DNA of 64,000 bases from the sequence record NC_048196.1. One strand, given 5' to 3'. This DNA comes from Escherichia phage vB_EcoM_Schickermooser. Below are positions 48,819-63,076 of the stretch, piece after piece (position 1 is the first letter of the stretch; each line of letters begins with the position of its first letter). A program made the translations under genes and the position numbers. Under the pieces are notes generated by a model. The model was not told the origin of the DNA and made no database searches. It worked only from the letters and a program-made list of their open reading frames with translations.

Positions 48819-50882
48819 ATGAAACAAGCTATATTTACTGTCACGCGAGACAAGAGAGTAAATGCGAGTTCATTTAACTACACGACTGTTGACGGAACAG
48901 CAGTCGCTGGTAGAGATTATATAGCAAAATCGGGAACACTTGTGTTCCCTGATGATGCTGATTCTGCTACCATTGTGGTTGAAGTATTTGAACGACCAAA
49001 GAACTCAATAGATCTTAACTTCTCCCTCCAAGTTTCAGGGATTAGTCAAAATAACATGATGGTTGAAACGACCATCAATTGTATTATAACTACTATCCAA
49101 GAAAACACTACTCCAATAACTTGGACTACAAAAGACGTTAAAATGTTCTCTCCTATGTATTGGACAATAGACTCTCAAGCAACGGAAAGTTGTTCTATTG
49201 TATCTCATGGAGACTCTTTTACTGCAAGATTTGTAAACAGAACAGCAGCAGGTTTGGCAGGGGTTATCTGGAGCACAGTTGACAAATATGATCACAAAGG
49301 AGTTGGGTATTTACCCCACACAGATTTAAGTTCAGAGAAACTTTGGTTTAAAATGGAAATTAGTCAAAACATGCCAGGTTTTAAAGAAGAACCTTTGGTG
49401 CCGACTTTGACTGTAACTCTCCTGGATAAAAGTGTTCATTATGTCAGTTTAGGATTCTACGCTTCAGATATTTCAGAAGATGGTAAAACAGCCACAATCA
49501 AGTTAGATTTTGGTAATATCTTTTCTGGCCCTAATAATGATATTCCTTTGGATATGAGTGCTGTAGATAATATTTTCTTCTCTTTGATTACAGCAAGGTA
49601 TGAAGAAATAGAAGAGATTGTACCTATTGCCAGTCAAGAGGCTTGGTTTACTTTCACTCTTCTTGAACCTACTTCTGGTTACAGTATGATGAAAGTCAGC
49701 AACCTTGTCCAGCCTGAACATGATATTCGCATGTGCACATCTTATGATGATATGTATAACCTGACTCCAGAGAGAGTTATTTATAATACGTATGCACTAG
49801 GTTATCGTGGAATGATTAACCATTACAACGGAATGTCTCACTATTATGAGTTCTCATGGAACGGAACATCTTGGGCTTTAAATAGATCTGTTTTCCTGAA
49901 TCCGGCTACAGAAGCTTGGCTTAACAGTTTCCATTCTATAGCTAATGAAAATGGCTACACAATAATGAACTCTTTGAGTTTTGAGTTGATGAGCACAGTT
50001 TGTCCTGTAGAATGGGTTCAACATGATTGGAACGATGCTCTTGCAGCAACAGGTTATGAGCCGCCTAGTTATGTGTTATCTCCAACAATTGATGAAGGTA
50101 TGGAATATTTGCAAAATGTTATTAACAAAATAGCATCTATTTCTCAAGCTAACAATATTCCAGTCGTCATTCAAATTGGTGAACCTTGGTGGTGGTATAA
50201 TACAGCAAGTAAAATGCCTTGTATATATGATTACACTACCAAACTAGCATTCAATACAGAAACAGGCTTATTTGCACAAGATGCAGGAACAATAGATAAT
50301 TATAAAACAGGAACACCGTTTGACGAATACTATGCATTTTTGTCTCGTAAACTAGGATTAAGAGTTACAAAGTTTGCAACAGACACTAGAGCAACTTATC
50401 CAGGAGCTAAAGTAACATTGCTTCCGTTCTTACCGTCAATTATTGGCAACGGTTTGATGGAGAAAGTTAACTTTCCGTCTGATTACTACATTCCTGAAGC
50501 TTTTGATTTTTACTGTTCAGAGTGTTACGACTGGCTTCTGGAAGGTAAAATGATGAAAGCATTTGATGCAATTACCATACCACATGAAAAATTAGGTTTT
50601 GAATATTCTGATATTCACTATCTTTCAGGTTTTGTTCCAGATGCTACTCTTGCACCTTTGTATGGCTTCGATCCTGAATCAAACTACCGCACGTATCTTT
50701 GGAAAATGATTATAGGTAATATAGTGTTGAACGCCAATAAGTTCAATGGACTTACACAATATATATGGGCCTATCCTCAAATAATGCACGATTCCATCAC
50801 GGTAGTTAATTCTCAATCCCAAGTTTTCTATATGGGTAACGTGCCTTTGAACGTTTATTTACAGGATACAGTATATGCCTAA
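48819..50882 (+). CDS. tail fibre or baseplate-associated protein (687 aa)
   Basis: Track ORF. Confidence 0.5.
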   Translation: MKQAIFTVTRDKRVNASSFNYTTVDGTAVAGRDYIAKSGTLVFPDDADSATIVVEVFERPKNSIDLNFSLQVSGISQNNMMVETTINCIITTIQENTTPITWTTKDVKMFSPMYWTIDSQATESCSIVSHGDSFTARFVNRTAAGLAGVIWSTVDKYDHKGVGYLPHTDLSSEKLWFKMEISQNMPGFKEEPLVPTLTVTLLDKSVHYVSLGFYASDISEDGKTATIKLDFGNIFSGPNNDIPLDMSAVDNIFFSLITARYEEIEEIVPIASQEAWFTFTLLEPTSGYSMMKVSNLVQPEHDIRMCTSYDDMYNLTPERVIYNTYALGYRGMINHYNGMSHYYEFSWNGTSWALNRSVFLNPATEAWLNSFHSIANENGYTIMNSLSFELMSTVCPVEWVQHDWNDALAATGYEPPSYVLSPTIDEGMEYLQNVINKIASISQANNIPVVIQIGEPWWWYNTASKMPCIYDYTTKLAFNTETGLFAQDAGTIDNYKTGTPFDEYYAFLSRKLGLRVTKFATDTRATYPGAKVTLLPFLPSIIGNGLMEKVNFPSDYYIPEAFDFYCSECYDWLLEGKMMKAFDAITIPHEKLGFEYSDIHYLSGFVPDATLAPLYGFDPESNYRTYLWKMIIGNIVLNANKFNGLTQYIWAYPQIMHDSITVVNSQSQVFYMGNVPLNVYLQDTVYA

Positions 50883-55219: not shown

Positions 55220-58200
55220 ATGGCAACATTCCCAACATATCCAGCAACGTCTCTCGAACAGGGCGTAGACCTGGTTATTTTCTCATCTAACCAACTCCAT
55301 GATGTTATTAATGGAAGTGCTACAGAGAGTATTGAAACAGAATCAGGGTTGATACCAACCCTGAGAAAAGCCCTTGTTGACAACTTTTTCTTTAAAAGCC
55401 CATTGGATTGGGCGCAAGGCACAAACGAAACAGTTTTTAACCAACTACGTTATTTTCAGAATGGGGTATTGAGCGGTTATTATTATGCTCCTAATGCTAC
55501 ATTGGTAAACCCAATCCCTATGCAAGGTACTCCAGTAGGAGATAACAACTGGGTATTGTGGGGATTGAAGACAGAACAATTGGCAACAGAAGTCACACCT
55601 TGGGTATATTCTGGTGCAACGGGTTATGAAACAGTAATTAGTCCTCCTTACATCTTTGATAGTGCTATTGTTACGATCAATGGTGTTATTCAGGTTCTGG
55701 GGGAAGCTTTCCGTATAGAAGATAGTAAGATCATCTTATCTGAACCTTTGGGACACGATCCTGCAACAGGACTGCCAAACAAACTTTTTGCTTATATTGG
55801 CAAAATCGTAGCTTCAGCAGATACAGATCCTAATCTAGAGAACCGTCTTGTTAGTTTAGAAACAAAAACGGAAGAACTAACAGAAAGTATGGATAAAGTC
55901 CCTCTGCAAACTATTGCTCGTAAGTATGGTTTGTTAGATGATGAGGTGGCTTACGCAACAGCAGGTCAATCGTTAACAGGGATTAAAGCTCTATATGATC
56001 CGGTAGCGCAGTCTTCCTACACATTACCTCCTAACATTACAGGCACTTTAACATCCCTGTCTGTTTCTGGAGTAATGACTTATTCTGGAGGATCTGTAGA
56101 CCTTTCTGCACTGGCTGTTGAGCGTGGACAGTTTGTTCATTTGCCTACAAGCTTTGGTAATAATGTAACTCTGACAGCTAAAAATCAGACGATTGGACGT
56201 GGCGCTGGTCGTTATCGTTGGGCTGGAAGTTTACCAAAAAGTATTTTGGCTTCTGATACATTGGAGACGAGCGGAGGATTAGGTCCAAATGCATGGGTTC
56301 TGACTAATACAGAAGGACTGTTAACCCCTCGTGGTGGAACATACAACGATTTATTCGATGTTGTCTACTTGTCCGAATTTGCTAACAATACAACTACCTA
56401 TACCACACCAGAAGCAGCTTTCCAGGCGGCACTGTTAGCAGCAAAAGCTTCGAAAAGCAAGATTCTCGATGCTTACGGTTGCGATATGACTTTCACGACA
56501 AGCTCTTTTGATATTCAAGGTATCACTTTGCGTGGGGGTGTGTTCCGTGGTCAACGCGACTATCGTGTGCAAAATGCTACGGTAGAAGGCACAACTTTCC
56601 GTAACTCTCGTGTTATGTATTGGGGTGGTGCTGTGCGCATGTTCGATTGTTTATGGGATGGTGCTCCTCGCGCAGGTCAAGTTGGTAGCTTGGTATTCCA
56701 AGGCAACCCAATATCAGGTACTTTTGAAATTGATAATTGTACTTTTAAAAACGGGTTATATGGCATTCTTCAACAAGGAACAGGGGAACCAGTAACACGT
56801 GGTGTCTTCCGTAACCTTACCTTCATGGACATGCAAGGTGATGCAATAGAACTGAACGTCATCAATAAACATTATGACGATGGTTGTGTGATTGAGAATA
56901 TTTACCTGTCTAATATCGATGGAACTAATGCTCCTATTCCTCTGTCGAACTGGGGTATCGGTATCGGTGTAGCTGGTAAAGGACCATATGGTTACGGAAT
57001 TCCTGATGATCAATATTGCAAGAATATTACAATTCGTAACGTTTTTGCAAAACGTTGCCGTCAGATTGTCCACGTAGAAGTTGGTCGTAATATTTCTATC
57101 GAAAACATTCATGGCGATCCAGATCAAACCGTATCTGTTGGGACAGGTTTGGCAACTGGCGCAGTTGTAATGTATGGAAGTAAAGATTTTACGATTGACG
57201 GTGTTTATGGAGAGCCTAAAACAGACGGTAGCACACTTGCAAGTAATATCCGTATGATTTATTTGGAGTGGGGAACTAACGCAGTTCTGGACGAAGAGGG
57301 TAATCCGGTAGTTCCGGCACAGGGTAGACCTTCAAACCCATGTTTTAACTATTCTGTTCGTAACATTCACACCAAAACTGGGCGTGTTTTTGCGGGAGTT
57401 TCCGCTGGGCCAGGTTATGAAAACAGAGTTAGCTTTGAAAATATTCGTTGCGCTGCATTGCAGTTGTTCGGTATAGCTTCTTGGCTTTCAATGTCTAACA
57501 TCACCTGTAATATCTTCGATTGTGTTGGTCAACCTGAATCTGGTCCAGGAACATTTTATGATGGATTCTTCCGTAGAGAAAAATCTGTTCTTGAAATGGT
57601 TAACGTAAACTGTTACCCAGATGGCAAGACGATGGTTACTGGTCGTCCACAGTGGAGCCGTTGCCGTTACTCGGATATTCATCGTGTCAACTGTAATGTT
57701 GAAGCTAATATGTATACCAATATCGCAGGTGGTATTGGAGCTATTGTAGGGACAACGGGCAAAGTTTATTACTTAGAGCCTAATCCTAGTCGAAACATTG
57801 ATGGAATGCATTTCCCAACAGGGAAAGAGTTTGACAAAGGTGATATGATAGTCAAAGCGGATAATACGTTCTTCCTTGTAACAACAAGTGGGGCATATAT
57901 TCCAGATATCCCAGCTTTCGGTATTCGAGCTACACAGGCAGGAGATACCTTCCTGACACAGAACTTGACTCCTAACGGGACAGCAACAAATGCTTCTTGG
58001 TTGTATCATTACCCTCTGTCAGCAGGGACACGTATCCGTATTCCTGGTGCTGGCGTAGGTGGAGCAGATTTGGACACAGTTATTACTCGTGCACCTTATC
58101 AAGATAATGATACGTGGACTAACCCAGTTAAAATAGACATTGCAGATCCAATTGTAACGCCTACAAGTGCTGGAGTTAGAATTAAAACCATACCTAATGA

Positions 58201-58273
58201 TTCCAGTAATGTTTCTGTAGGTAATACTGCGGTTATTCGCCCAACGCCAGTAGTAGATGTGCCAACAACCTAA
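55220..58273 (+). CDS. tailspike / receptor-binding protein (1017 aa)
   Basis: Long Gly/Asn/Thr-rich repetitive region suggestive of beta-helix. Confidence 0.5.
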   Translation: MATFPTYPATSLEQGVDLVIFSSNQLHDVINGSATESIETESGLIPTLRKALVDNFFFKSPLDWAQGTNETVFNQLRYFQNGVLSGYYYAPNATLVNPIPMQGTPVGDNNWVLWGLKTEQLATEVTPWVYSGATGYETVISPPYIFDSAIVTINGVIQVLGEAFRIEDSKIILSEPLGHDPATGLPNKLFAYIGKIVASADTDPNLENRLVSLETKTEELTESMDKVPLQTIARKYGLLDDEVAYATAGQSLTGIKALYDPVAQSSYTLPPNITGTLTSLSVSGVMTYSGGSVDLSALAVERGQFVHLPTSFGNNVTLTAKNQTIGRGAGRYRWAGSLPKSILASDTLETSGGLGPNAWVLTNTEGLLTPRGGTYNDLFDVVYLSEFANNTTTYTTPEAAFQAALLAAKASKSKILDAYGCDMTFTTSSFDIQGITLRGGVFRGQRDYRVQNATVEGTTFRNSRVMYWGGAVRMFDCLWDGAPRAGQVGSLVFQGNPISGTFEIDNCTFKNGLYGILQQGTGEPVTRGVFRNLTFMDMQGDAIELNVINKHYDDGCVIENIYLSNIDGTNAPIPLSNWGIGIGVAGKGPYGYGIPDDQYCKNITIRNVFAKRCRQIVHVEVGRNISIENIHGDPDQTVSVGTGLATGAVVMYGSKDFTIDGVYGEPKTDGSTLASNIRMIYLEWGTNAVLDEEGNPVVPAQGRPSNPCFNYSVRNIHTKTGRVFAGVSAGPGYENRVSFENIRCAALQLFGIASWLSMSNITCNIFDCVGQPESGPGTFYDGFFRREKSVLEMVNVNCYPDGKTMVTGRPQWSRCRYSDIHRVNCNVEANMYTNIAGGIGAIVGTTGKVYYLEPNPSRNIDGMHFPTGKEFDKGDMIVKADNTFFLVTTSGAYIPDIPAFGIRATQAGDTFLTQNLTPNGTATNASWLYHYPLSAGTRIRIPGAGVGGADLDTVITRAPYQDNDTWTNPVKIDIADPIVTPTSAGVRIKTIPNDSSNVSVGNTAVIRPTPVVDVPTT

Positions 58274-58279
58274 TGGAAT

Positions 58280-58302
58280 AGAGGGGGATTCCCCCTCTTC
58301 TT
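58280..58302 (+). terminator. hairpin terminator, weak T-run
   Basis: GAGGGGGATTCCCCCTC. Confidence 0.4.
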
Positions 58303-58334: not shown

Positions 58335-60359
58335 ATGAATTTAACAAGACCTAATAGTGCGATAGCCGATCTGGTAGAAGCTACTTATCGAAAACGTCGC
58401 AGCTTTGAGGCAGGTTTTACATTACGTAATTCCCGTGAAGTTTTGCTGTTAGCAGCAGAAGGGAATTATTACCAATGGAAAGGAACTTTTCCTAAAGTGG
58501 TTCCAGCAAACTCTACGCCAGCCACCACAGGTGGTATTTCTTCCCTTGCATGGCAAAGTGTTGGGACCGCTGATGATATAGCAATTATCAATGCCAAGTT
58601 TACGGCAATGCAGCAACAAATTGATGATCTGTCGGAAACAATACCTGAAGCTGGTAAATCGGCTTATCAGATCGCACTTGATAATGGTTTTGTTGGAACA
58701 GAAGCACAGTGGCTTGCCTCTTTGAAAGGGGATACTGGTGCTCAACTTAATATTAAAGGATCATTAGCAAGTACTAGTGAACTACCATCCACAGGTAACG
58801 TTGCAGGGGATGGTTATATCGTAGGTGATGTAATCTACGCTTGGGATGGTTCTGTTTGGAAACTTATTTCTTCTCTTGGGCCAGAAGGTAAATCAGCTTA
58901 CGAGGTATGGTTGGCAGATGGTAATACAGGATCTGTTTATGATTTCCTTACCTCTATAAAAGGTGATAAAGGCGATGTTGGTCCTACAGGGCCACAGGGA
59001 GCACCTGGTGTTAACGCCAACGGTTTTGATTATCGTGGAGATTTGCCTTCTACAAGTAACTTACCACAACCTAACTCTGAAAACGTAAGCCAAGCTTATT
59101 CTATCAATGGAAATCTTTATGTCTCTAATGGGACAGCTTGGGTCAACATGGGTAATATTGTTGGTCCTCAAGGTCCACAAGGTGAGGCAGGTAAAGACGG
59201 TCTAGATGGAACAGATGGAGATGAAGGGAAATCTGCATATCAAAGTTGGCTGGATGCTGGTAATGAAGGGACAGAAGTAGATTTTATTGCCTCGCTTAAA
59301 GGTCCAAAAGGAGACAAGGGTGATCAAGGAGAGCAAGGTCCACAAGGTGAATTAGGTCCACAAGGACCAGTAGGTGCAACAGGATCAGGCTTAGAGATTA
59401 TCGGGGTTCTGAACAGCGAAGCTGAACTTCCTCCGACTGGAGAAGTAGGTGACGCATATAAAATTAATAATGATTTATATGTTTGGGTCCAAGATGCTAC
59501 GGAATGGATGAATGTTGGCAGTCTTGGAGGAACATCAATTACAGCTAAAGGTCATGTTCCGAACAGTGAAGCTCTCCCTGTTTACAATAACTATGGTGAT
59601 GCTTACTTAACTGAAGACACTAGTAATCTTTACATCTATACCTACGATCAAGACACCAATTCCGCATCTTTTGTTGACATGGGAAGTATTAAAGGCGACA
59701 AAGGTGAAAAAGGGGATAAAGGAGATAAGGGTGATCCTGGAACAAACGGAACCAACGGTACTGATGGGACCAACGGTAAGGATGGCGCACAGTGGTTTGT
59801 AGCAACAACTAATCCAGTCACAGGAGACGGTGTTATCAATGATTACGCCTTCAATACTACCACTGGAGCAGTATTTAAGAAAACAGATTCTTCTACGTGG
59901 ACACTTATAGGAACTCTTCCTAGTATACCAGAAGCCCCTCAAGACGGCTTGACGTATGGTCGTTCTGATGGAAACTGGATCGAACTATCAGGATCAGATC
60001 CTACGGAAGCTATAACACCAACTAGAGTTACAGCAGGTTTCATGGAACTTGAAACAACTACTGCCAACTCTGGAGCATCTTGGACTCCTTCTGGAACTTC
60101 CAATATGTATGTTGTTACAGTAACTGACGCTCTGACAGTTGGAGCATGGCCTGGTGTCACTGGCTCTACAAAACCTAAAGCGTTTTCAGCAATGATTTAT
60201 TTGATTCAAGATACAACGGGACACACGGTTACACTAGATGCGTCTTATGGAGCACTAAATGATACAGAAATAGCAACTACTGCTAACGCAGTAACAATTT
60301 TGCAATTAACGTATCCTGGTGTGGGTGATATCGTGGACATGGTTGTTGTAACACGATAA
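58335..60359 (+). CDS. tail fibre with collagen-like Gly-X-Y repeats (674 aa)
   Basis: GPQGPQGEAGKDGLDGTDGDEG, KGDKGEKGDKGDKGDPGTNGTNGTDG and three copies of GKSAY...KGDKGD module. Confidence 0.55.
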   Translation: MNLTRPNSAIADLVEATYRKRRSFEAGFTLRNSREVLLLAAEGNYYQWKGTFPKVVPANSTPATTGGISSLAWQSVGTADDIAIINAKFTAMQQQIDDLSETIPEAGKSAYQIALDNGFVGTEAQWLASLKGDTGAQLNIKGSLASTSELPSTGNVAGDGYIVGDVIYAWDGSVWKLISSLGPEGKSAYEVWLADGNTGSVYDFLTSIKGDKGDVGPTGPQGAPGVNANGFDYRGDLPSTSNLPQPNSENVSQAYSINGNLYVSNGTAWVNMGNIVGPQGPQGEAGKDGLDGTDGDEGKSAYQSWLDAGNEGTEVDFIASLKGPKGDKGDQGEQGPQGELGPQGPVGATGSGLEIIGVLNSEAELPPTGEVGDAYKINNDLYVWVQDATEWMNVGSLGGTSITAKGHVPNSEALPVYNNYGDAYLTEDTSNLYIYTYDQDTNSASFVDMGSIKGDKGEKGDKGDKGDPGTNGTNGTDGTNGKDGAQWFVATTNPVTGDGVINDYAFNTTTGAVFKKTDSSTWTLIGTLPSIPEAPQDGLTYGRSDGNWIELSGSDPTEAITPTRVTAGFMELETTTANSGASWTPSGTSNMYVVTVTDALTVGAWPGVTGSTKPKAFSAMIYLIQDTTGHTVTLDASYGALNDTEIATTANAVTILQLTYPGVGDIVDMVVVTR

Positions 60360-60362
60360 CAG

Positions 60363-60387
60363 AAGCCCCGAAAGGGGCTTTCTTTTT
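60363..60387 (+). terminator. rho-independent terminator
   Basis: AAGCCCCGAAAGGGGCTTTCTTTTT. Confidence 0.6.
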
Positions 60388-60400
60388 ATGGAGGGTTTAA

Positions 60401-63076
60401 ATGTTTCCAATTCCAATATTTACTATTATGACCAGCACTGGTGTCGTTCCTCTGCCAGCAGGTATTGTTAAAAAAGTAATCACTCTAGATTACCCAGATA
60501 ATGCTGGCAATTCTAATAGCAGTTTAGCAATTTTGCTTAATGATGGTAGATTGTTTACTCAAGGCGCAAACCTTTTTGGTGAGATTGCAGATGGAACTCG
60601 TAGTGCACGATTCAATAATTTCCACTTAGCTTCTACTGTAGTAGCGGATGTGTTTACCGCAGATCGTTGTTTTGTTATTAAAACTAACAGTGGGGGATGG
60701 CAATATTCAGGATTGACAGCAGGGTTGGTAGGATCTATAGCAGCAGGTGGTACGGATGCATGTGTAACCACTTGGACCAGCTTTCCATCTGTAATAACAG
60801 GGACTATCTCTTTAGCCAATCTTAAAGAGGTTAAGGGAGGATATAACAATACTCTCTGGTTAATGAATAGTGGTGTTCTTTATGGATCGGGTCAAAACAC
60901 AGTAGGCAGTTTAGGTGCAAGCACTACTAACGAAGTTTCTACTCCTCGTCAGATAACAAGCGCAGCAGTTGCTTTTGATGCAGGTTACAACCAATGTTCT
61001 TATGTCAACAATGTGGGAACCTTGCGTGTTTGTGGAGCCAGTAAAGGTTTAGCAGGTAATAATAACACAACAACAGCTTTTGTCAATGCCAAGATATCCG
61101 CTACTGAAACAGTGTATGTCAAAGATTACATCAATACAGTTTCCCAGACAATAGTTGTAGGAGATACCTCCGGTGGCACGGGTACAGTAAACTACTTATA
61201 TGTTAGATCTAATACAGAAACAACCTACACTAAACTGGATACCTTTGCAGCAGGTTTCTCAACATGGAAGTTTCCACCAAGCCGCCACTCTTTTTTCGTT
61301 GGGATTAATAATTCCTTGTGGGCTATTGGTAAGAACTACACTGCAAACTTAGGTTTGGGGTATGATTCTGCGAGCGGAGATCCACTCCAAGTGGGAAAAC
61401 CAGTTAAACCTGAAGGAGTGGGTTCTTGGGATATAAACAAGCTCACAAGCGTTCATACGCTGAATATGGATGTTACTAACCAATTAGGTTATCAAGGAAC
61501 CTTTTTCGTTTATAATGGAGATATGTATTATTCCGGTATTTGGAAAGATGGGAAAGCCTCGTATCTGTTCAATAGTGGTCTAAACTATAATAAATTCACA
61601 CCAATAGCAAGCTCCGTGATTACGGGCGATATTCTGGCAACTGGCTTAACTACAGATTCTTTAGGAATTTGTATTGTAGGTGGAACTAAACAGTTGACAC
61701 ATTCTGTTAGCCCAGAAGGAGGTAAACTTTTCAATATTAAATACACTTCTTCTGCCCCTGCAAACATGACAATATCATCTACTGGTTTAATGACTTTCCA
61801 TGCAGAAGGTGGTTTTGATGCAGGTATGACAGCCTTAAACGCTGAAGGAACAACTTTATCAGATACCTCTGGAGGATATGCTTCAACATTGAGCGTTTAC
61901 ACCCCTAGCTTATCTGCGATGGATGTAGGAACAACACAAACAATGGTAGCAGAAATAACGCCAACAGGAGCAGCAAGCTTACCTGGTATGGTTGTTGAGT
62001 ATTTCTCTAATGACCCTACGGTAGCAACAGTTGACCCCGTTACAGGCGTTATTACAGCGGTTGCTGATGGGGATTGTCGTATCGGTTGTAGAGCAACTTA
62101 TCAAGGTGTGGTAACTGCCGAAGATAGTTCTTATCTCGCAGTGAATGCTGTGGTGATTGTGATGGACTATGATTTGACGCAAGAAACTATTCCAACGGAT
62201 GTAAAGGTCAATAGGAGTAACCGTTATGCCAGGGCTTCTGGAGATATCCTTGTACCTACAGAGAGTTCTGCTCCCGTAGCACCTTTAGAATATGTTGGTA
62301 CAACTCCACAAGGTAGACGTGTTGTAGCAGCCAACCGTACACATATCTTTATCAACAATAACTTGACAACAGCTTCCCCGTGGTTGAAGACGAACTTGAC
62401 AGTCACAGCATCAACAATCAACTCTCCGGTTGGAACTACGGCTAACACTTACAAGTTAACACCTTCTACAACTTCAGGACAACATATTTTATCAGCAGTG
62501 AATACAGCCTCTGATATTACAGCAGGTAAGCACTGGGCGGCATCCGTATTCTTGAAGACAGACGGGATCACTAAAGTTAAACTCAAATTGACTTCAGGAG
62601 ATGAGATTAACGAAGGGACTTATGATCTTGTAGCTGGAACATTTACAGGTGCAGATGCAAACATAATCGATATGGGGAATGGTTGGTATCGTGTAATTCT
62701 ACACAAAGTGACAGTTGCCAAACAAGCATCTATAACCTATGAGATTATAGCTTTGAATGCAAGTGGATCAGACACTTTCGCAGGAGATGGTACGGCAGGT
62801 CTTATTGCTTGGGTTCCACAGCTTGAGATGGGTGATATGACAAATCCAGTTTGGGCGGGGACACCATTTGTTTGTTCTTATGCACGAGACACTACCAGTG
62901 CTGTTACCTTCACTATTCCTAAGAATGGACATACTGGCGTGGACATTTACCACACCGATGGTACTGTGCAACGAGAGGTCTTCACTGGTACAGCTACAAC
63001 TTGGATGTTGACGTTCACCGCCGCAAGTGCGGATTGGGGATCGAAGTTCATTACAGGTTTGAAATATTACGACTAA
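60401..63076 (+). CDS. tail fibre protein (891 aa)
   Basis: Gly/Thr/Ser-rich; last gene of rightward block. Confidence 0.5.
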   Translation: MFPIPIFTIMTSTGVVPLPAGIVKKVITLDYPDNAGNSNSSLAILLNDGRLFTQGANLFGEIADGTRSARFNNFHLASTVVADVFTADRCFVIKTNSGGWQYSGLTAGLVGSIAAGGTDACVTTWTSFPSVITGTISLANLKEVKGGYNNTLWLMNSGVLYGSGQNTVGSLGASTTNEVSTPRQITSAAVAFDAGYNQCSYVNNVGTLRVCGASKGLAGNNNTTTAFVNAKISATETVYVKDYINTVSQTIVVGDTSGGTGTVNYLYVRSNTETTYTKLDTFAAGFSTWKFPPSRHSFFVGINNSLWAIGKNYTANLGLGYDSASGDPLQVGKPVKPEGVGSWDINKLTSVHTLNMDVTNQLGYQGTFFVYNGDMYYSGIWKDGKASYLFNSGLNYNKFTPIASSVITGDILATGLTTDSLGICIVGGTKQLTHSVSPEGGKLFNIKYTSSAPANMTISSTGLMTFHAEGGFDAGMTALNAEGTTLSDTSGGYASTLSVYTPSLSAMDVGTTQTMVAEITPTGAASLPGMVVEYFSNDPTVATVDPVTGVITAVADGDCRIGCRATYQGVVTAEDSSYLAVNAVVIVMDYDLTQETIPTDVKVNRSNRYARASGDILVPTESSAPVAPLEYVGTTPQGRRVVAANRTHIFINNNLTTASPWLKTNLTVTASTINSPVGTTANTYKLTPSTTSGQHILSAVNTASDITAGKHWAASVFLKTDGITKVKLKLTSGDEINEGTYDLVAGTFTGADANIIDMGNGWYRVILHKVTVAKQASITYEIIALNASGSDTFAGDGTAGLIAWVPQLEMGDMTNPVWAGTPFVCSYARDTTSAVTFTIPKNGHTGVDIYHTDGTVQREVFTGTATTWMLTFTAASADWGSKFITGLKYYD

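Follow-up and report, generated by a model that had tools for sequence, protein, structure and literature searches.

A tail fibre gene behind the colanidase tailspike

The 64-kb window (the whole stretch of DNA analysed here) comes from a Phapecoctavirus, a phAPEC8-like E. coli myovirus. Directly downstream of its colanidase tailspike gene at 55220-58273 lies an ORF that starts with ATG, is preceded by an AGGAG ribosome-binding site and encodes a protein of 674 aa. The ORF is part of a baseplate/fibre block, in which it is flanked by the tailspike on one side and another tail protein on the other (order compared with SKA64, outra and phi92). The order in phi92, i.e., short fibre, assembly protein, lipoprotein, colanidase and gene 151, matches that of the window. 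The ORF and the putative transcriptional signals around it are as follows.

58280..58298, + strand: terminator-like inverted repeat AGAGGGGGA-T-TCCCCCTCT, then a T-rich tract (read from the sequence)
58335..60359, + strand: whole ORF, putative lateral tail fibre (phrog_15437 match and orthology; PMC12695924)
60362..60381, + strand: terminator-like GC-rich hairpin, then a T run, directly after the stop codon (found by scan; annotated at the same place in ASO2A)

The upstream inverted repeat falls between the colanidase gene and the fibre gene; it did not pass a simple terminator scan, and the ASO2A record has a rho-independent terminator annotated at the equivalent place.

Several lines of evidence support the assignment as a tail fibre already made in the first-pass annotation of this DNA. 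First, phrog_15437 ("tail fiber protein"), the family of gp151-type lateral tail fibres of Stephanstirmvirinae, is matched from end to end: aa 1-674 of the protein align with profile positions 1-655 of 656 at 1339 bits. Second, it carries an N-terminal Tail_spike_N domain. Third, it is encoded in the baseplate/tail-fibre gene block after the colanidase. Dozens of GenBank phage genes are 97-99% identical to the ORF and are labelled tail fibre or collagen repeat protein; at ≥90% identity and full length, the gene is present in 68 phage records, the majority labelled tail fibre. Orthologs include gp151 of phi92, which has been named as a potential tail fibre (PMC5380687, PMC13450770, PMC10269720), the "putative phage tail fiber protein" of phAPEC8 and TfpM2 of Wecvirus (PMC12695924). 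By its sequence, the gene belongs to a known family, the collagen-containing tail fibres already catalogued in E. coli phages of the phAPEC8/phi92 type, and it is ordinary in that its rod is built from stock phage-fibre building blocks.

Architecture of the predicted fibre

The protein can be divided into an N-terminal anchor, a helical neck, a rod of repeated modules and collagen-like runs, a foldon-like motif and a C-terminal domain. All features are on the + strand.

58335..58565, +: conserved N-terminal peptide (aa 1-11) and Tail_spike_N domain (aa 12-77; PF18668)
58575..58640, +: single long helix, aa 81-102 (AF2)
58653..58730, +: module A copy 1, GKSAYQIALDNGFVGTEAQWLASLKG, helix-loop-helix (motif, HMM; AF2 helices 110-116 and 123-130)
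58740..58883, +: module B copy 1, ~45 aa, LPxxGxxGDxY…W…G (HMM match aa 139-182; four strands in AF2)
58887..58964, +: module A copy 2, GKSAYEVWLADGNTGSVYDFLTSIKG (motif, HMM, AF2)
58962..59015, +: Gly-X-Y run 1, 6 triplets, aa 210-227
59016..59162, +: module B copy 2 (HMM, AF2)
59163..59234, +: Gly-X-Y run 2, 8 triplets, aa 277-300
59226..59303, +: module A copy 3, GKSAYQSWLDAGNEGTEVDFIASLKG (motif, HMM, AF2)
59301..59390, +: Gly-X-Y run 3, 10 triplets, aa 323-352
59391..59693, +: module B copies 3 and 4, in tandem (HMM, AF2)
59694..59792, +: Gly-X-Y run 4, 11 triplets, aa 454-486
59793..59918, +: module B copy 5, degenerate (missed by the HMM; in AF2 a four-strand unit like the other B modules)
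59919..59996, +: foldon-like motif PSIPEAPQDGLTYGRSDGNWIELSGS, aa 529-554 (phmmer, profile, AF2)
60003..60356, +: C-terminal beta-sandwich domain, aa 557-674 (PDB and phrog matches, AF2)

The first-pass annotation had described collagen-like runs alternating with three copies of a 30-aa module beginning GKSAY. The three copies are present at nt 58653-58730, 58887-58964 and 59226-59303, close to where they had been placed, as modules of 26 aa each (GKSAY…S(L/I)KG) starting at aa 107, 185 and 298; a motif regex run on all six reading frames of the 64-kb window returned no site beyond these three. The copies share 46-65% amino-acid and 58-65% nucleotide identity pairwise. Ungapped BLOSUM62 scores between them are 59, 77 and 83, while in 1000 shuffles of the protein the best score per shuffle averaged 16-17 and never exceeded 45. 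The proposed consensus GKSAY(Q/E)xWLxxGNxGxxxDFxxSxKG(D/P)KGD describes copies 2 and 3 but not copy 1, GKSAYQIALDNGFVGTEAQWLASLKG, which follows the commoner family consensus GxSAYxxAxxxGFxGTxxxxLxSLKG. The trailing KGD is not part of the module; it is the start of the next collagen run, and only two triplets come after copy 1. Moreover, the alternation is real but incomplete as described, because a second repeated module, B, alternates as well. Module B, which had gone unnoticed, is of beta type, ~45 aa long, follows LPxxGxxGDAY…W…G and occurs in five copies. Self-BLASTP of the protein gave no off-diagonal matches, and seeded HMMs were therefore used for the module search.

In the AF2 model, each A module forms a helix-loop-helix and each of the five B modules a four-strand unit, with a pLDDT of ~77-87 for the block of B copy 1; the model is of a monomer and has a pTM of 0.23. 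Module A has no matching model in Pfam (2025) or NCBIfam, and its profile gave only chance-level matches against the PDB (E ≥0.5; HincII, LRR kinase). Pfam found nothing on the isolated A1-B1-A2 segment. The phage-fibre repeat models suggested as a check, Phage_fiber and Phage_fiber_2 (PF03335, PF03406), did not match at E ≤1 with the whole protein or at E ≤10 with A1-B1-A2. The module B profile matches gp184 (8y6v; E 3e-5). Among the best 120 of >2000 related phage fibre proteins, the number of A modules ranges from 0 to 21 per protein. A and B modules are also found in fibres of phages from many environments.

As described earlier, several Gly-X-Y stretches are uninterrupted. The four runs, of 6, 8, 10 and 11 triplets, sum to 35 triplets or 16% of the protein; at the Gly frequency of 13.5%, the chance expectation is 4e-3 for a run of 6 triplets and 2e-7 for one of 11. 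The suggested Pfam check agrees: Collagen (PF01391) matches over four stretches with 46.2 bits (cut-off 27.2; E 4e-12). Pro occupies X in 8 of the 35 triplets, and Lys in Y followed by Gly-Asp/Glu occurs in 7. In bacterial collagens, which are free of Hyp, Pro in X and Lys-Gly-Asp/Glu features stabilise triple helices. The triplet composition is compatible with a predicted collagen triple helix. The runs have a pLDDT <50 in the AF2 monomer model, as expected for a monomer.

Such a rod could act as a passive spacer or, alternatively, be a ligand itself, e.g., a mimic of animal collagen that sticks to gut mucus or extracellular matrix. We regard the latter as extremely improbable. There is general precedent in bacterial collagen-like adhesins, and these proteins (Scl1/2, Lcl) are the best NCBIfam matches, all far below cut-offs; many of these phages also came from gut or sewage samples. 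However, the NCBIfam matches reflect Gly-X-Y composition only (61.7 bits with a cut-off of 400), the X and Y positions rank among the least conserved (46-71% identity), the run length drifts, and the same modules occur in phage fibres from many environments.

Further elements had also escaped the first-pass annotation: the Tail_spike_N anchor, the foldon-like motif and a conserved C-terminal beta-sandwich tip. Tail_spike_N (PF18668, aa 12-77) scores 70.3 bits with a cut-off of 25, and the N-terminal domain matches CBA120 TSP1/3/4 and G7C gp63.1 in PDB sequence searches (4oj5, 5w6f, 5w6h, 4qnl) and CBA120 TSPs and G7C gp63.1 again in Foldseek. Together with the N-terminal peptide, it is presumed from these similarities to provide attachment to the virion or a partner protein. 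Mean identity among orthologs is 79% in the N-terminal region, second only to module A1 at 86%. From the model, the helix at aa 81-102 may be inferred to form a short coiled-coil neck; the phi92 record remarks on a "coiled-coil fold".

At the end of the rod, the motif at aa 529-554 has the foldon signature residues (PEAP, DG turn, Y, R, DG turn, W; IPEAPQDGLTYGRSDGNW compared with IPEAPRDGQAYVRKDGEW in T4). A single-sequence phmmer search matched T4 fibritin foldon chains at E 0.002-0.015, and a profile built from 29 family segments matches the foldon PDB entry 1rfo at E 3e-10. In AF2, the motif contains a beta-hairpin (541-544/547-550). The isolated segment stays below the cut-off of Pfam Fibritin_C (PF07921; 12.7 bits, E 0.14, cut-off 21), and precomputed PF07921 matches are present in several relatives. 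More distant relatives have 2-6 tandem copies of the foldon motif.

The C-terminal domain matches the C-terminus of the phiTE tail fibre (PDB 9cuy_g; E 3.8e-8) and that of phrog_4549 (E 9e-40), and the C-termini of rV5-like tail fibres are ~51% identical to it; Pfam found nothing on the isolated domain. By these homologies, it is presumed to be a distal tip that binds a receptor or a partner, and the binding part of the fibre is likely this domain rather than the repeats. The domain is rather conserved, with a mean identity of 66% among orthologs, which fits a conserved receptor or adaptor role better than that of a variable specificity determinant.

The same elements bear on where in the virion the protein resides. 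A neck whisker or capsid fibre, i.e., a fibritin- or capsid-spike-like decoration that uses its foldon in the manner of T4 Wac and functions in assembly, sensing or loose surface adherence, would account for the foldon-like motif at the end of the rod, for the Foldseek likeness to the Pa223 capsid spike, which has been reported for gp151 too (PMC13450770), and for the report that gp151 fitted no baseplate fibre density of phi92 (PMC13450770). Nevertheless, we consider this location improbable: the gene lies within the baseplate/tail-fibre block, between the tailspike and another tail protein, the N-terminus is of the tailspike type, and the C-terminal domain is homologous to tips of the phiTE baseplate fibre and of rV5-like tail fibres.

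Length variation among relatives

The first-pass annotation had suggested that the repeats can expand or contract and thereby change fibre length or specificity, and that an identical repeat number in all relatives and reads would refute this. The relatives differ in triplet number and agree in module number. The protein has three A modules in all orthologous clusters (P0001-P0014; ~520 member sequences), across two genera and more. In 13 orthologs, all indels fall within the Gly-X-Y runs except for an insertion in the B3 loop, a few residues of the linker after the foldon-like motif and the loss of B5, which is missing from ortholog P0012. Run 1 has 6 triplets in 24 of 24 full-length relatives examined. 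Run 2 varies from 5 to 11 triplets in orthologs and reaches 16 in more distant relatives; run 3 varies from 8 to 10 in orthologs; and run 4, the most length-variable segment, from <4 to 13. Because triplet numbers differ among relatives, the idea of expansion survives in a weak form, as slow evolutionary change in the number of Gly-X-Y triplets with a fixed count of 26-aa modules. None of the tests performed here supports a change in specificity.

Among Phapecoctavirus records with listed coordinates, the gene is 2025 nt long in all but three, and the others are 88-99% identical. In ASO2A, 9 nt have been lost from run 4, corresponding to one GTN triplet located between AACGG direct repeats. 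SKA64 has 76 extra nt, a tandem duplication of module A1 that causes a frameshift; if this sequence is right, the phage is viable with a frameshifted copy and may not need the fibre on some hosts. In EP57, 486 nt (162 aa) are deleted from the gene. We do not count this deletion as natural shortening, because the record falls ~20 kb short and both fibre genes next to this one are truncated too, which suggests an assembly problem.

These variants, and the varying triplet numbers among orthologs, could be taken as signs of a hypervariable contingency locus, in which frequent slippage or recombination between repeats would generate fibres of mixed length or specificity within a phage population. 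Such a locus appears very improbable to us. Near-perfect tandem DNA repeats were not found with TRF or as exact self-repeats, the longest of which in the gene is 17 nt. TRF reported imperfect arrays, mainly of 9/18 nt (period 9-18, one of 10; 1.9-5.1 copies), that are short, 66-91% matched and scored 31-60, and the A copies are no more than 58-65% identical in DNA. Frequent length polymorphism among near-identical genomes was not observed either, with three variants among the listed records and a 2025-nt gene in all others; of these variants, the SKA64 change destroys the reading frame and the EP57 deletion comes from the doubtful assembly. The constant number of A modules also argues against it. 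An IMG/VR scan gave one near-identical contig, which is truncated at its end, and otherwise only distant fibres. Because the DNA repeats are old and imperfect, we conclude that the locus is not hypervariable.

Proposed fibre and comparison with known systems

Altogether, these findings support a model in which the gene very probably encodes a homotrimeric lateral, i.e., baseplate-associated, tail fibre of a phAPEC8-like E. coli myovirus, orthologous to gp151 of phi92. We suggest that the N-terminal peptide and Tail_spike_N attach the fibre either to the virion or to a second fibre protein, for which the colanidase tailspike encoded next to it is the probable candidate, and that a short coiled coil follows this anchor. 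The rod would resemble beads on a string: four collagen-type triple helices, together a stiff and thin spacer of perhaps ~30 nm, would be separated by small nodes that are not collagenous, namely the three A modules (helix-loop-helix) and the five B modules (four beta strands). The foldon-like hairpin at the C-terminal end of the rod is most likely the nucleus for trimerisation and registration; the triple helices would zip up starting from it, and the A/B nodes between the spacers would re-register the three chains locally. The C-terminal beta-sandwich would form the distal tip, in contact with either a structure on the host surface or another adhesin. In evolution, spacer lengths drift by whole triplets, mostly in run 4, which would tune the reach of the fibre by ~0.9 nm per triplet; module order is conserved.

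In phi92, it has been called unclear which genes encode which fibre (PMC8594841), and in a 2026 cryo-EM study, predicted gp151 models misfit the unresolved "fiber II" density (PMC13450770). A bolder and rather doubtful extension of our model is that module A acts as a trimer "staple" and, together with the internal foldon, makes the protein a natural Hyp-free collagen-foldon scaffold, which may be a component of phi92 "fiber II" docked on the colanidase spike.

For genome biology, the gene adds little that is new, as its tail-fibre family in phAPEC8/phi92-type coliphages is well populated and annotated. Some of these phages are in use or under consideration in phage therapy. With its modules mapped (anchor, coiled coil, A/B nodes, four collagen spacers, foldon, tip), a fibre that could not be placed in recent cryo-EM work can be divided at clean boundaries, be it for engineering or for multimer modelling of one segment at a time. 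Length evolution occurs almost entirely in the Gly-X-Y runs, above all in run 4, indicating where reach can change without breaking assembly. Protein designers may also be interested in the way collagen and foldon are naturally combined and in the small helix-hairpin node, which is abundant and has no solved structure.

Collagen-like fibres of EHEC prophages are trimers; the length of their collagen varies among alleles by multiples of three, and refolding is nucleated by a C-terminal domain (PMC3368898). The 674-aa protein, a presumed trimer, resembles these EPclA-D proteins (Ghosh et al. 2012, PMC3368898) in that Gly-X-Y domains are flanked and interrupted by non-collagenous, here putative, trimerisation domains. 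However, the collagen part of EPcl proteins consists of one or two long domains instead of four short ones, and their flanking domains PfN/PCoil/Pf2/PfC (PF08400, PF03406, PF06820) are different; a Pfam scan of the 674-aa protein reported none of these three at E up to 1.

The branched tailspikes CBA120 TSP1-4 and G7C gp63.1/gp66 share Tail_spike_N with the protein but, unlike it, have a beta-helix enzyme domain. The longer two-domain N-terminal module of these spikes is carried by the neighbouring colanidase, which hints at a branched assembly like those of CBA120 and G7C; no gp10-like XD domains were identified. Foldseek also returned the Pa223 capsid spike gp52 (9ny6, a triple beta-helix; E 3.7e-4) and a DUF2793 baseplate protein (8rk3), with low TM-scores (0.13/0.26) obtained from the monomer model. 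In contrast to the 674-aa protein, Pa223 gp52 and DUF2793 proteins have neither collagen nor A modules, and they occupy a different place in the virion.

The foldon of T4 fibritin (Wac) is a ~26-aa motif that has the signature (I/V)PEAPxDGxxYxRxDGxW in common with the motif described here, and 14 of 27 residues are identical in a manual alignment. In T4 Wac and in engineered collagen-foldon chimeras (PDB 1RFO, 1NAY), the foldon likewise caps a trimeric rod on its C-terminal side, trimerisation being presumed for the fibre described here. Unlike in T4 fibritin, the motif is internal, with a 120-aa tip domain after it, and the rod consists of collagen and modules rather than a coiled coil.

The closest counterparts are phi92 gp151, the phAPEC8 protein, TfpM2 and the BASEL "lateral tail fiber protein with type I collagen domain" (phrog_15437), all of which represent the same gene as the one described here. 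The phAPEC8 gene is 98.4% identical to the window gene in nucleotides, and phi92 gp151 is ~60% identical to the protein in amino acids. In layout, only triplet numbers differ: runs 2, 3 and 4 contain 8, 10 and 11 triplets compared to 6, 9 and 6 in gp151. The colanidase upstream is also longer in the window. The fibres agree in the order of their modules, in the N-terminal anchor and C-terminal domain, and in the genes that surround them.

Architecture of the fibre protein

The fibre gene (58335-60359, + strand) starts with ATG downstream of an AGGAG ribosome-binding site and encodes a 674-aa protein. The first-pass annotation had described several uninterrupted Gly-X-Y stretches and three GKSAY-type modules in this ORF, and both observations hold. 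In addition, we identify an N-terminal Tail_spike_N domain, a second repeated module, a foldon-like motif and a C-terminal beta-sandwich domain, all absent from that annotation. The parts are arranged in the order anchor, coil, A1, B1, A2, Col1, B2, Col2, A3, Col3, B3, B4, Col4, B5, foldon, tip.

Parts of the fibre protein (amino acid positions; + strand)
12-77: anchor, Tail_spike_N domain (PF18668, 70 bits)
from 107 (nt 58653): A1, GKSAY module
139-182: B1, beta module (HMM)
from 185 (nt 58887): A2, GKSAY module
210-227: Col1, 6 uninterrupted Gly-X-Y triplets
232-277: B2, beta module (HMM)
277-300: Col2, 8 uninterrupted triplets
from 298 (nt 59226): A3, GKSAY module
323-352: Col3, 10 uninterrupted triplets
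354-399: B3, beta module (HMM)
403-454: B4, beta module (HMM)
454-486: Col4, 11 uninterrupted triplets
487-528: B5, degenerate copy with the four-strand pattern of B1-B4 in the predicted structure
529-554: fibritin-foldon-like motif, PSIPEAPQDGLTYGRSDGNWIELSGS
557-674: tip, beta-sandwich domain

Several lines of evidence support the collagen assignment. First, the four Gly-X-Y runs sum to 35 triplets, while at the Gly frequency of this protein 4e-3 runs of 6 triplets and 2e-7 runs of 11 would be expected by chance. Second, the Pfam Collagen model gives 46.2 bits, above its gathering score of 27.2. Third, Lys in Y is followed by Gly-Asp/Glu in seven triplets and Pro occupies X in eight; both features stabilise Hyp-free collagens such as the Scl2-type bacterial collagens.

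The A modules are 46-65% identical in amino acids, with ungapped BLOSUM62 scores of 59-83 between copies compared to a maximum of 45 in 1000 shuffles, and the six-frame translation of the window contains no GKSAY motif outside A1-A3. The consensus proposed earlier, GKSAY(Q/E)xWLxxGNxGxxxDFxxSxKG(D/P)KGD, describes copies 2 and 3 but not copy 1, which fits the commoner family consensus GxSAYxxAxxxGFxGTxxxxLxSLKG. Module A is unmatched in Pfam-A (2025 copy), NCBIfam and, by profile, the PDB. In the AF2 model, a monomer with a mean pLDDT of 66.6 and a pTM of 0.23, every A module is a helix-loop-helix, a 22-residue helix comes after Tail_spike_N, and the Gly-X-Y runs are unstructured (pLDDT <50), as expected for one chain.

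Module B (~45 aa) has the pattern LPxxGxxGDAYxI...W.N.G...G. Its profile matches PDB entries weakly, i.e., gp184 in 8y6v (E 3e-5) and the DUF2793 protein 8rk3 (E 0.014), and the four canonical copies are modelled as a four-strand unit with a block pLDDT of ~75-90. The foldon-like motif matches foldon-containing PDB chains as a single sequence (E 0.002-0.015), and a profile built from 29 corresponding segments of relatives matches the T4 foldon 1RFO (E 3e-10); its PDB matches number 566, and the best 60 are fibritin or proteins whose structures are usually determined as fusions to a foldon. AF2 places a hairpin at aa 541-550. Because Pfam Fibritin_C scores only 12.7 bits on the isolated segment, under the cut-off of 21, we refer to the motif as foldon-like and do not assign it to that family.

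A known fibre family built from widespread modules

The fibre gene belongs to an already known and annotated phage tail-fibre family. Over its full length, it is 97-99% identical to tail-fibre genes in dozens of Escherichia Phapecoctavirus phages (e.g., PNJ1809-36, 99.2%; phAPEC8, 98.4%), annotated as "tail fiber protein", "collagen triple helix repeat protein" or "tail spike protein", and phrog_15437 matches the protein end to end. Orthologs further away in sequence include phi92 gene 151, labelled "tail fiber protein", the gene labelled "lateral tail fiber protein with type I collagen domain" in the BASEL phages, and the 681-aa Wecvirus TfpM2 (PMC12695924). Of the best 120 relatives, most contain A and B modules according to HMMs built from the window copies, with 0-21 copies of A and 0-11 of B per relative; 66 of the 120 carry one to six foldon-like segments. 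The source phages infect many hosts and include phiKZ-like Pseudomonas, Erwinia, Serratia, Ralstonia and Lactobacillus phages. The modules are widespread stock parts. More distant fibres (relatives P0015-P0038) share the N-terminal two-thirds but finish with two to six tandem foldon-like repeats (EAPxDGxxYxRxxGxW) and another C-terminal domain.

The surrounding baseplate/fibre block comprises Baseplate_J, DUF2612, a 353-aa short fibre, Caudo_TAP, a small protein (a lipoprotein in the phi92 annotation), a colanidase-like tailspike, the fibre gene and an RCC1/Big_2 tail protein, an order common to SKA64, outra and phi92. GC-rich hairpins lie directly on each side of the fibre gene:

58280-58298: upstream hairpin
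60362-60381: downstream hairpin

Phage ASO2A has rho-independent terminators annotated at both sites, and transcription of the fibre gene may thus be insulated from, or attenuated relative to, that of its neighbours.

The product of the downstream gene (60401-63076, + strand) is a tail protein of 891 aa that combines an RCC1-like beta-propeller with Big_2 domains (phrog_11922). On length, it is presumably TfpM1, an 890/891-aa fibre reported missing in Justusliebigvirus (PMC12695924). Elsewhere in the baseplate region of this contractile-tailed phage, 48819-50882 (+ strand) encodes a 687-aa protein with Calx-beta and NCTSP_N domains and a "non-contractile tail sheath protein TIM barrel" domain (E 4e-79). 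GC skew is negative over 1-22 kb of the window and positive beyond, consistent with a coding-strand switch between the upstream block and the structural gene block.

Length variation of the repeats

Orthologous clusters P0001-P0014 (~520 members drawn from three or more genera, 58-99% identity) retain all three A and four HMM-detectable B modules, except P0006, the EP57 deletion variant, with two. In a 13-sequence ortholog alignment, all indels but three lie in Gly-X-Y runs; the exceptions are a B3 loop insertion, a few residues in the post-foldon linker and the loss of B5 in P0012, where a Gly-X-Y run abuts the foldon directly. Run 1 has 6 triplets in 24 of 24 full-length relatives examined. 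Run 2 varies from 5 to 11 triplets, reaching 16 in more remote relatives, run 3 from 8 to 10 and run 4 from <4 to 13. Conservation is lowest in run 4 (46% identity, 35% gaps) and highest in the N-terminus and A1.

All listed Phapecoctavirus records have 2025 nt save three. ASO2A is 9 nt shorter, having lost a single GTN triplet between two AACGG direct repeats. SKA64 (OM362897, 6001-8101) has 76 extra nt, a tandem copy of exactly A1 that shifts the frame, and only the truncated downstream CDS of 549 aa is annotated; either the duplication is genuine and inactivates the gene in a phage that is still viable, or it reflects an error of sequencing or assembly. vB_EcoM_EP57 (OR544956, 3501-5039) lacks 486 nt in frame, leaving 512 aa; the deletion starts within A3 and reaches the end of run 4, taking out the last part of A3, all of Col3, B3 and B4, and most of Col4. 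This record totals just 130.7 kb, and its colanidase and downstream tail protein are likewise far shorter than in relatives, so the deletion may be an assembly artefact.

Within the gene, DNA identity among the A copies is 58-65%, the longest exact repeat is 17 nt, and the arrays that TRF detects are all short and imperfect (mostly period 9 or 18; scores ≤60). The DNA repeats are old. The earlier proposal that the repeats expand or contract is therefore supported in part: triplet number is not the same in all relatives, as runs 2-4 vary, and spacers drift by whole triplets over evolutionary time, but nothing points to a fast-switching locus. Similar whole-triplet length drift has been described for collagen-like fibres of EHEC prophages (PMC3368898). 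We find no evidence for the suggested effect of the repeats on specificity.

Proposed assembly and comparison with known fibres

Collagen runs, coiled coils and foldons each form trimers, and the fibre protein, having all three, is almost certainly a homotrimer. We suggest that the foldon at the C-terminal end of the rod nucleates and registers the chains, and that the A and B nodes bring them back into register from one of the four triple helices to the next. Collagen rises by ~0.29 nm per residue; the 105 collagen residues would then span ~30 nm, at ~0.9 nm per triplet, and the whole fibre may measure roughly 60-70 nm. The strongly conserved N-terminal 80 residues may dock the fibre to the virion or to another fibre, for which the upstream colanidase is a candidate. 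This mosaic, colanidase-like tailspike (55220-58273, + strand; 1017 aa; phrog_6117) exceeds its phi92 counterpart gp150 by 213 aa. Remaining interest lies in module A, which lacks a solved structure, in the natural collagen-foldon arrangement, and in where this fibre sits on phi92/phAPEC8-type phages and which receptor it binds.

By Foldseek against the PDB, the N-terminus of the fibre matches CBA120 TSP1/3/4 and G7C gp63.1; further matches of the model are the Pa223 capsid spike 9ny6 (E 3.7e-4) and JBD30 8rk3. G7C gp63.1 and CBA120 TSP1/3/4 also match the colanidase, as a full two-domain N-terminal module at aa 226-398 (E ~1e-30 to 1e-27). The C-terminal domain of the fibre is homologous to the C-termini of rV5-like tail fibres and of the phiTE tail fibre (PDB 9cuy_g, PMC11972413; E 3.8e-8), and colanidase aa 11-124, a phiTE-fibre-like baseplate anchor, match the N-terminus of the phiTE fibre (9cuy_g 14-129; E 2e-18). 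Thus, what forms the two ends of one fibre in phiTE is distributed here between two neighbouring genes, in line with a branched assembly.
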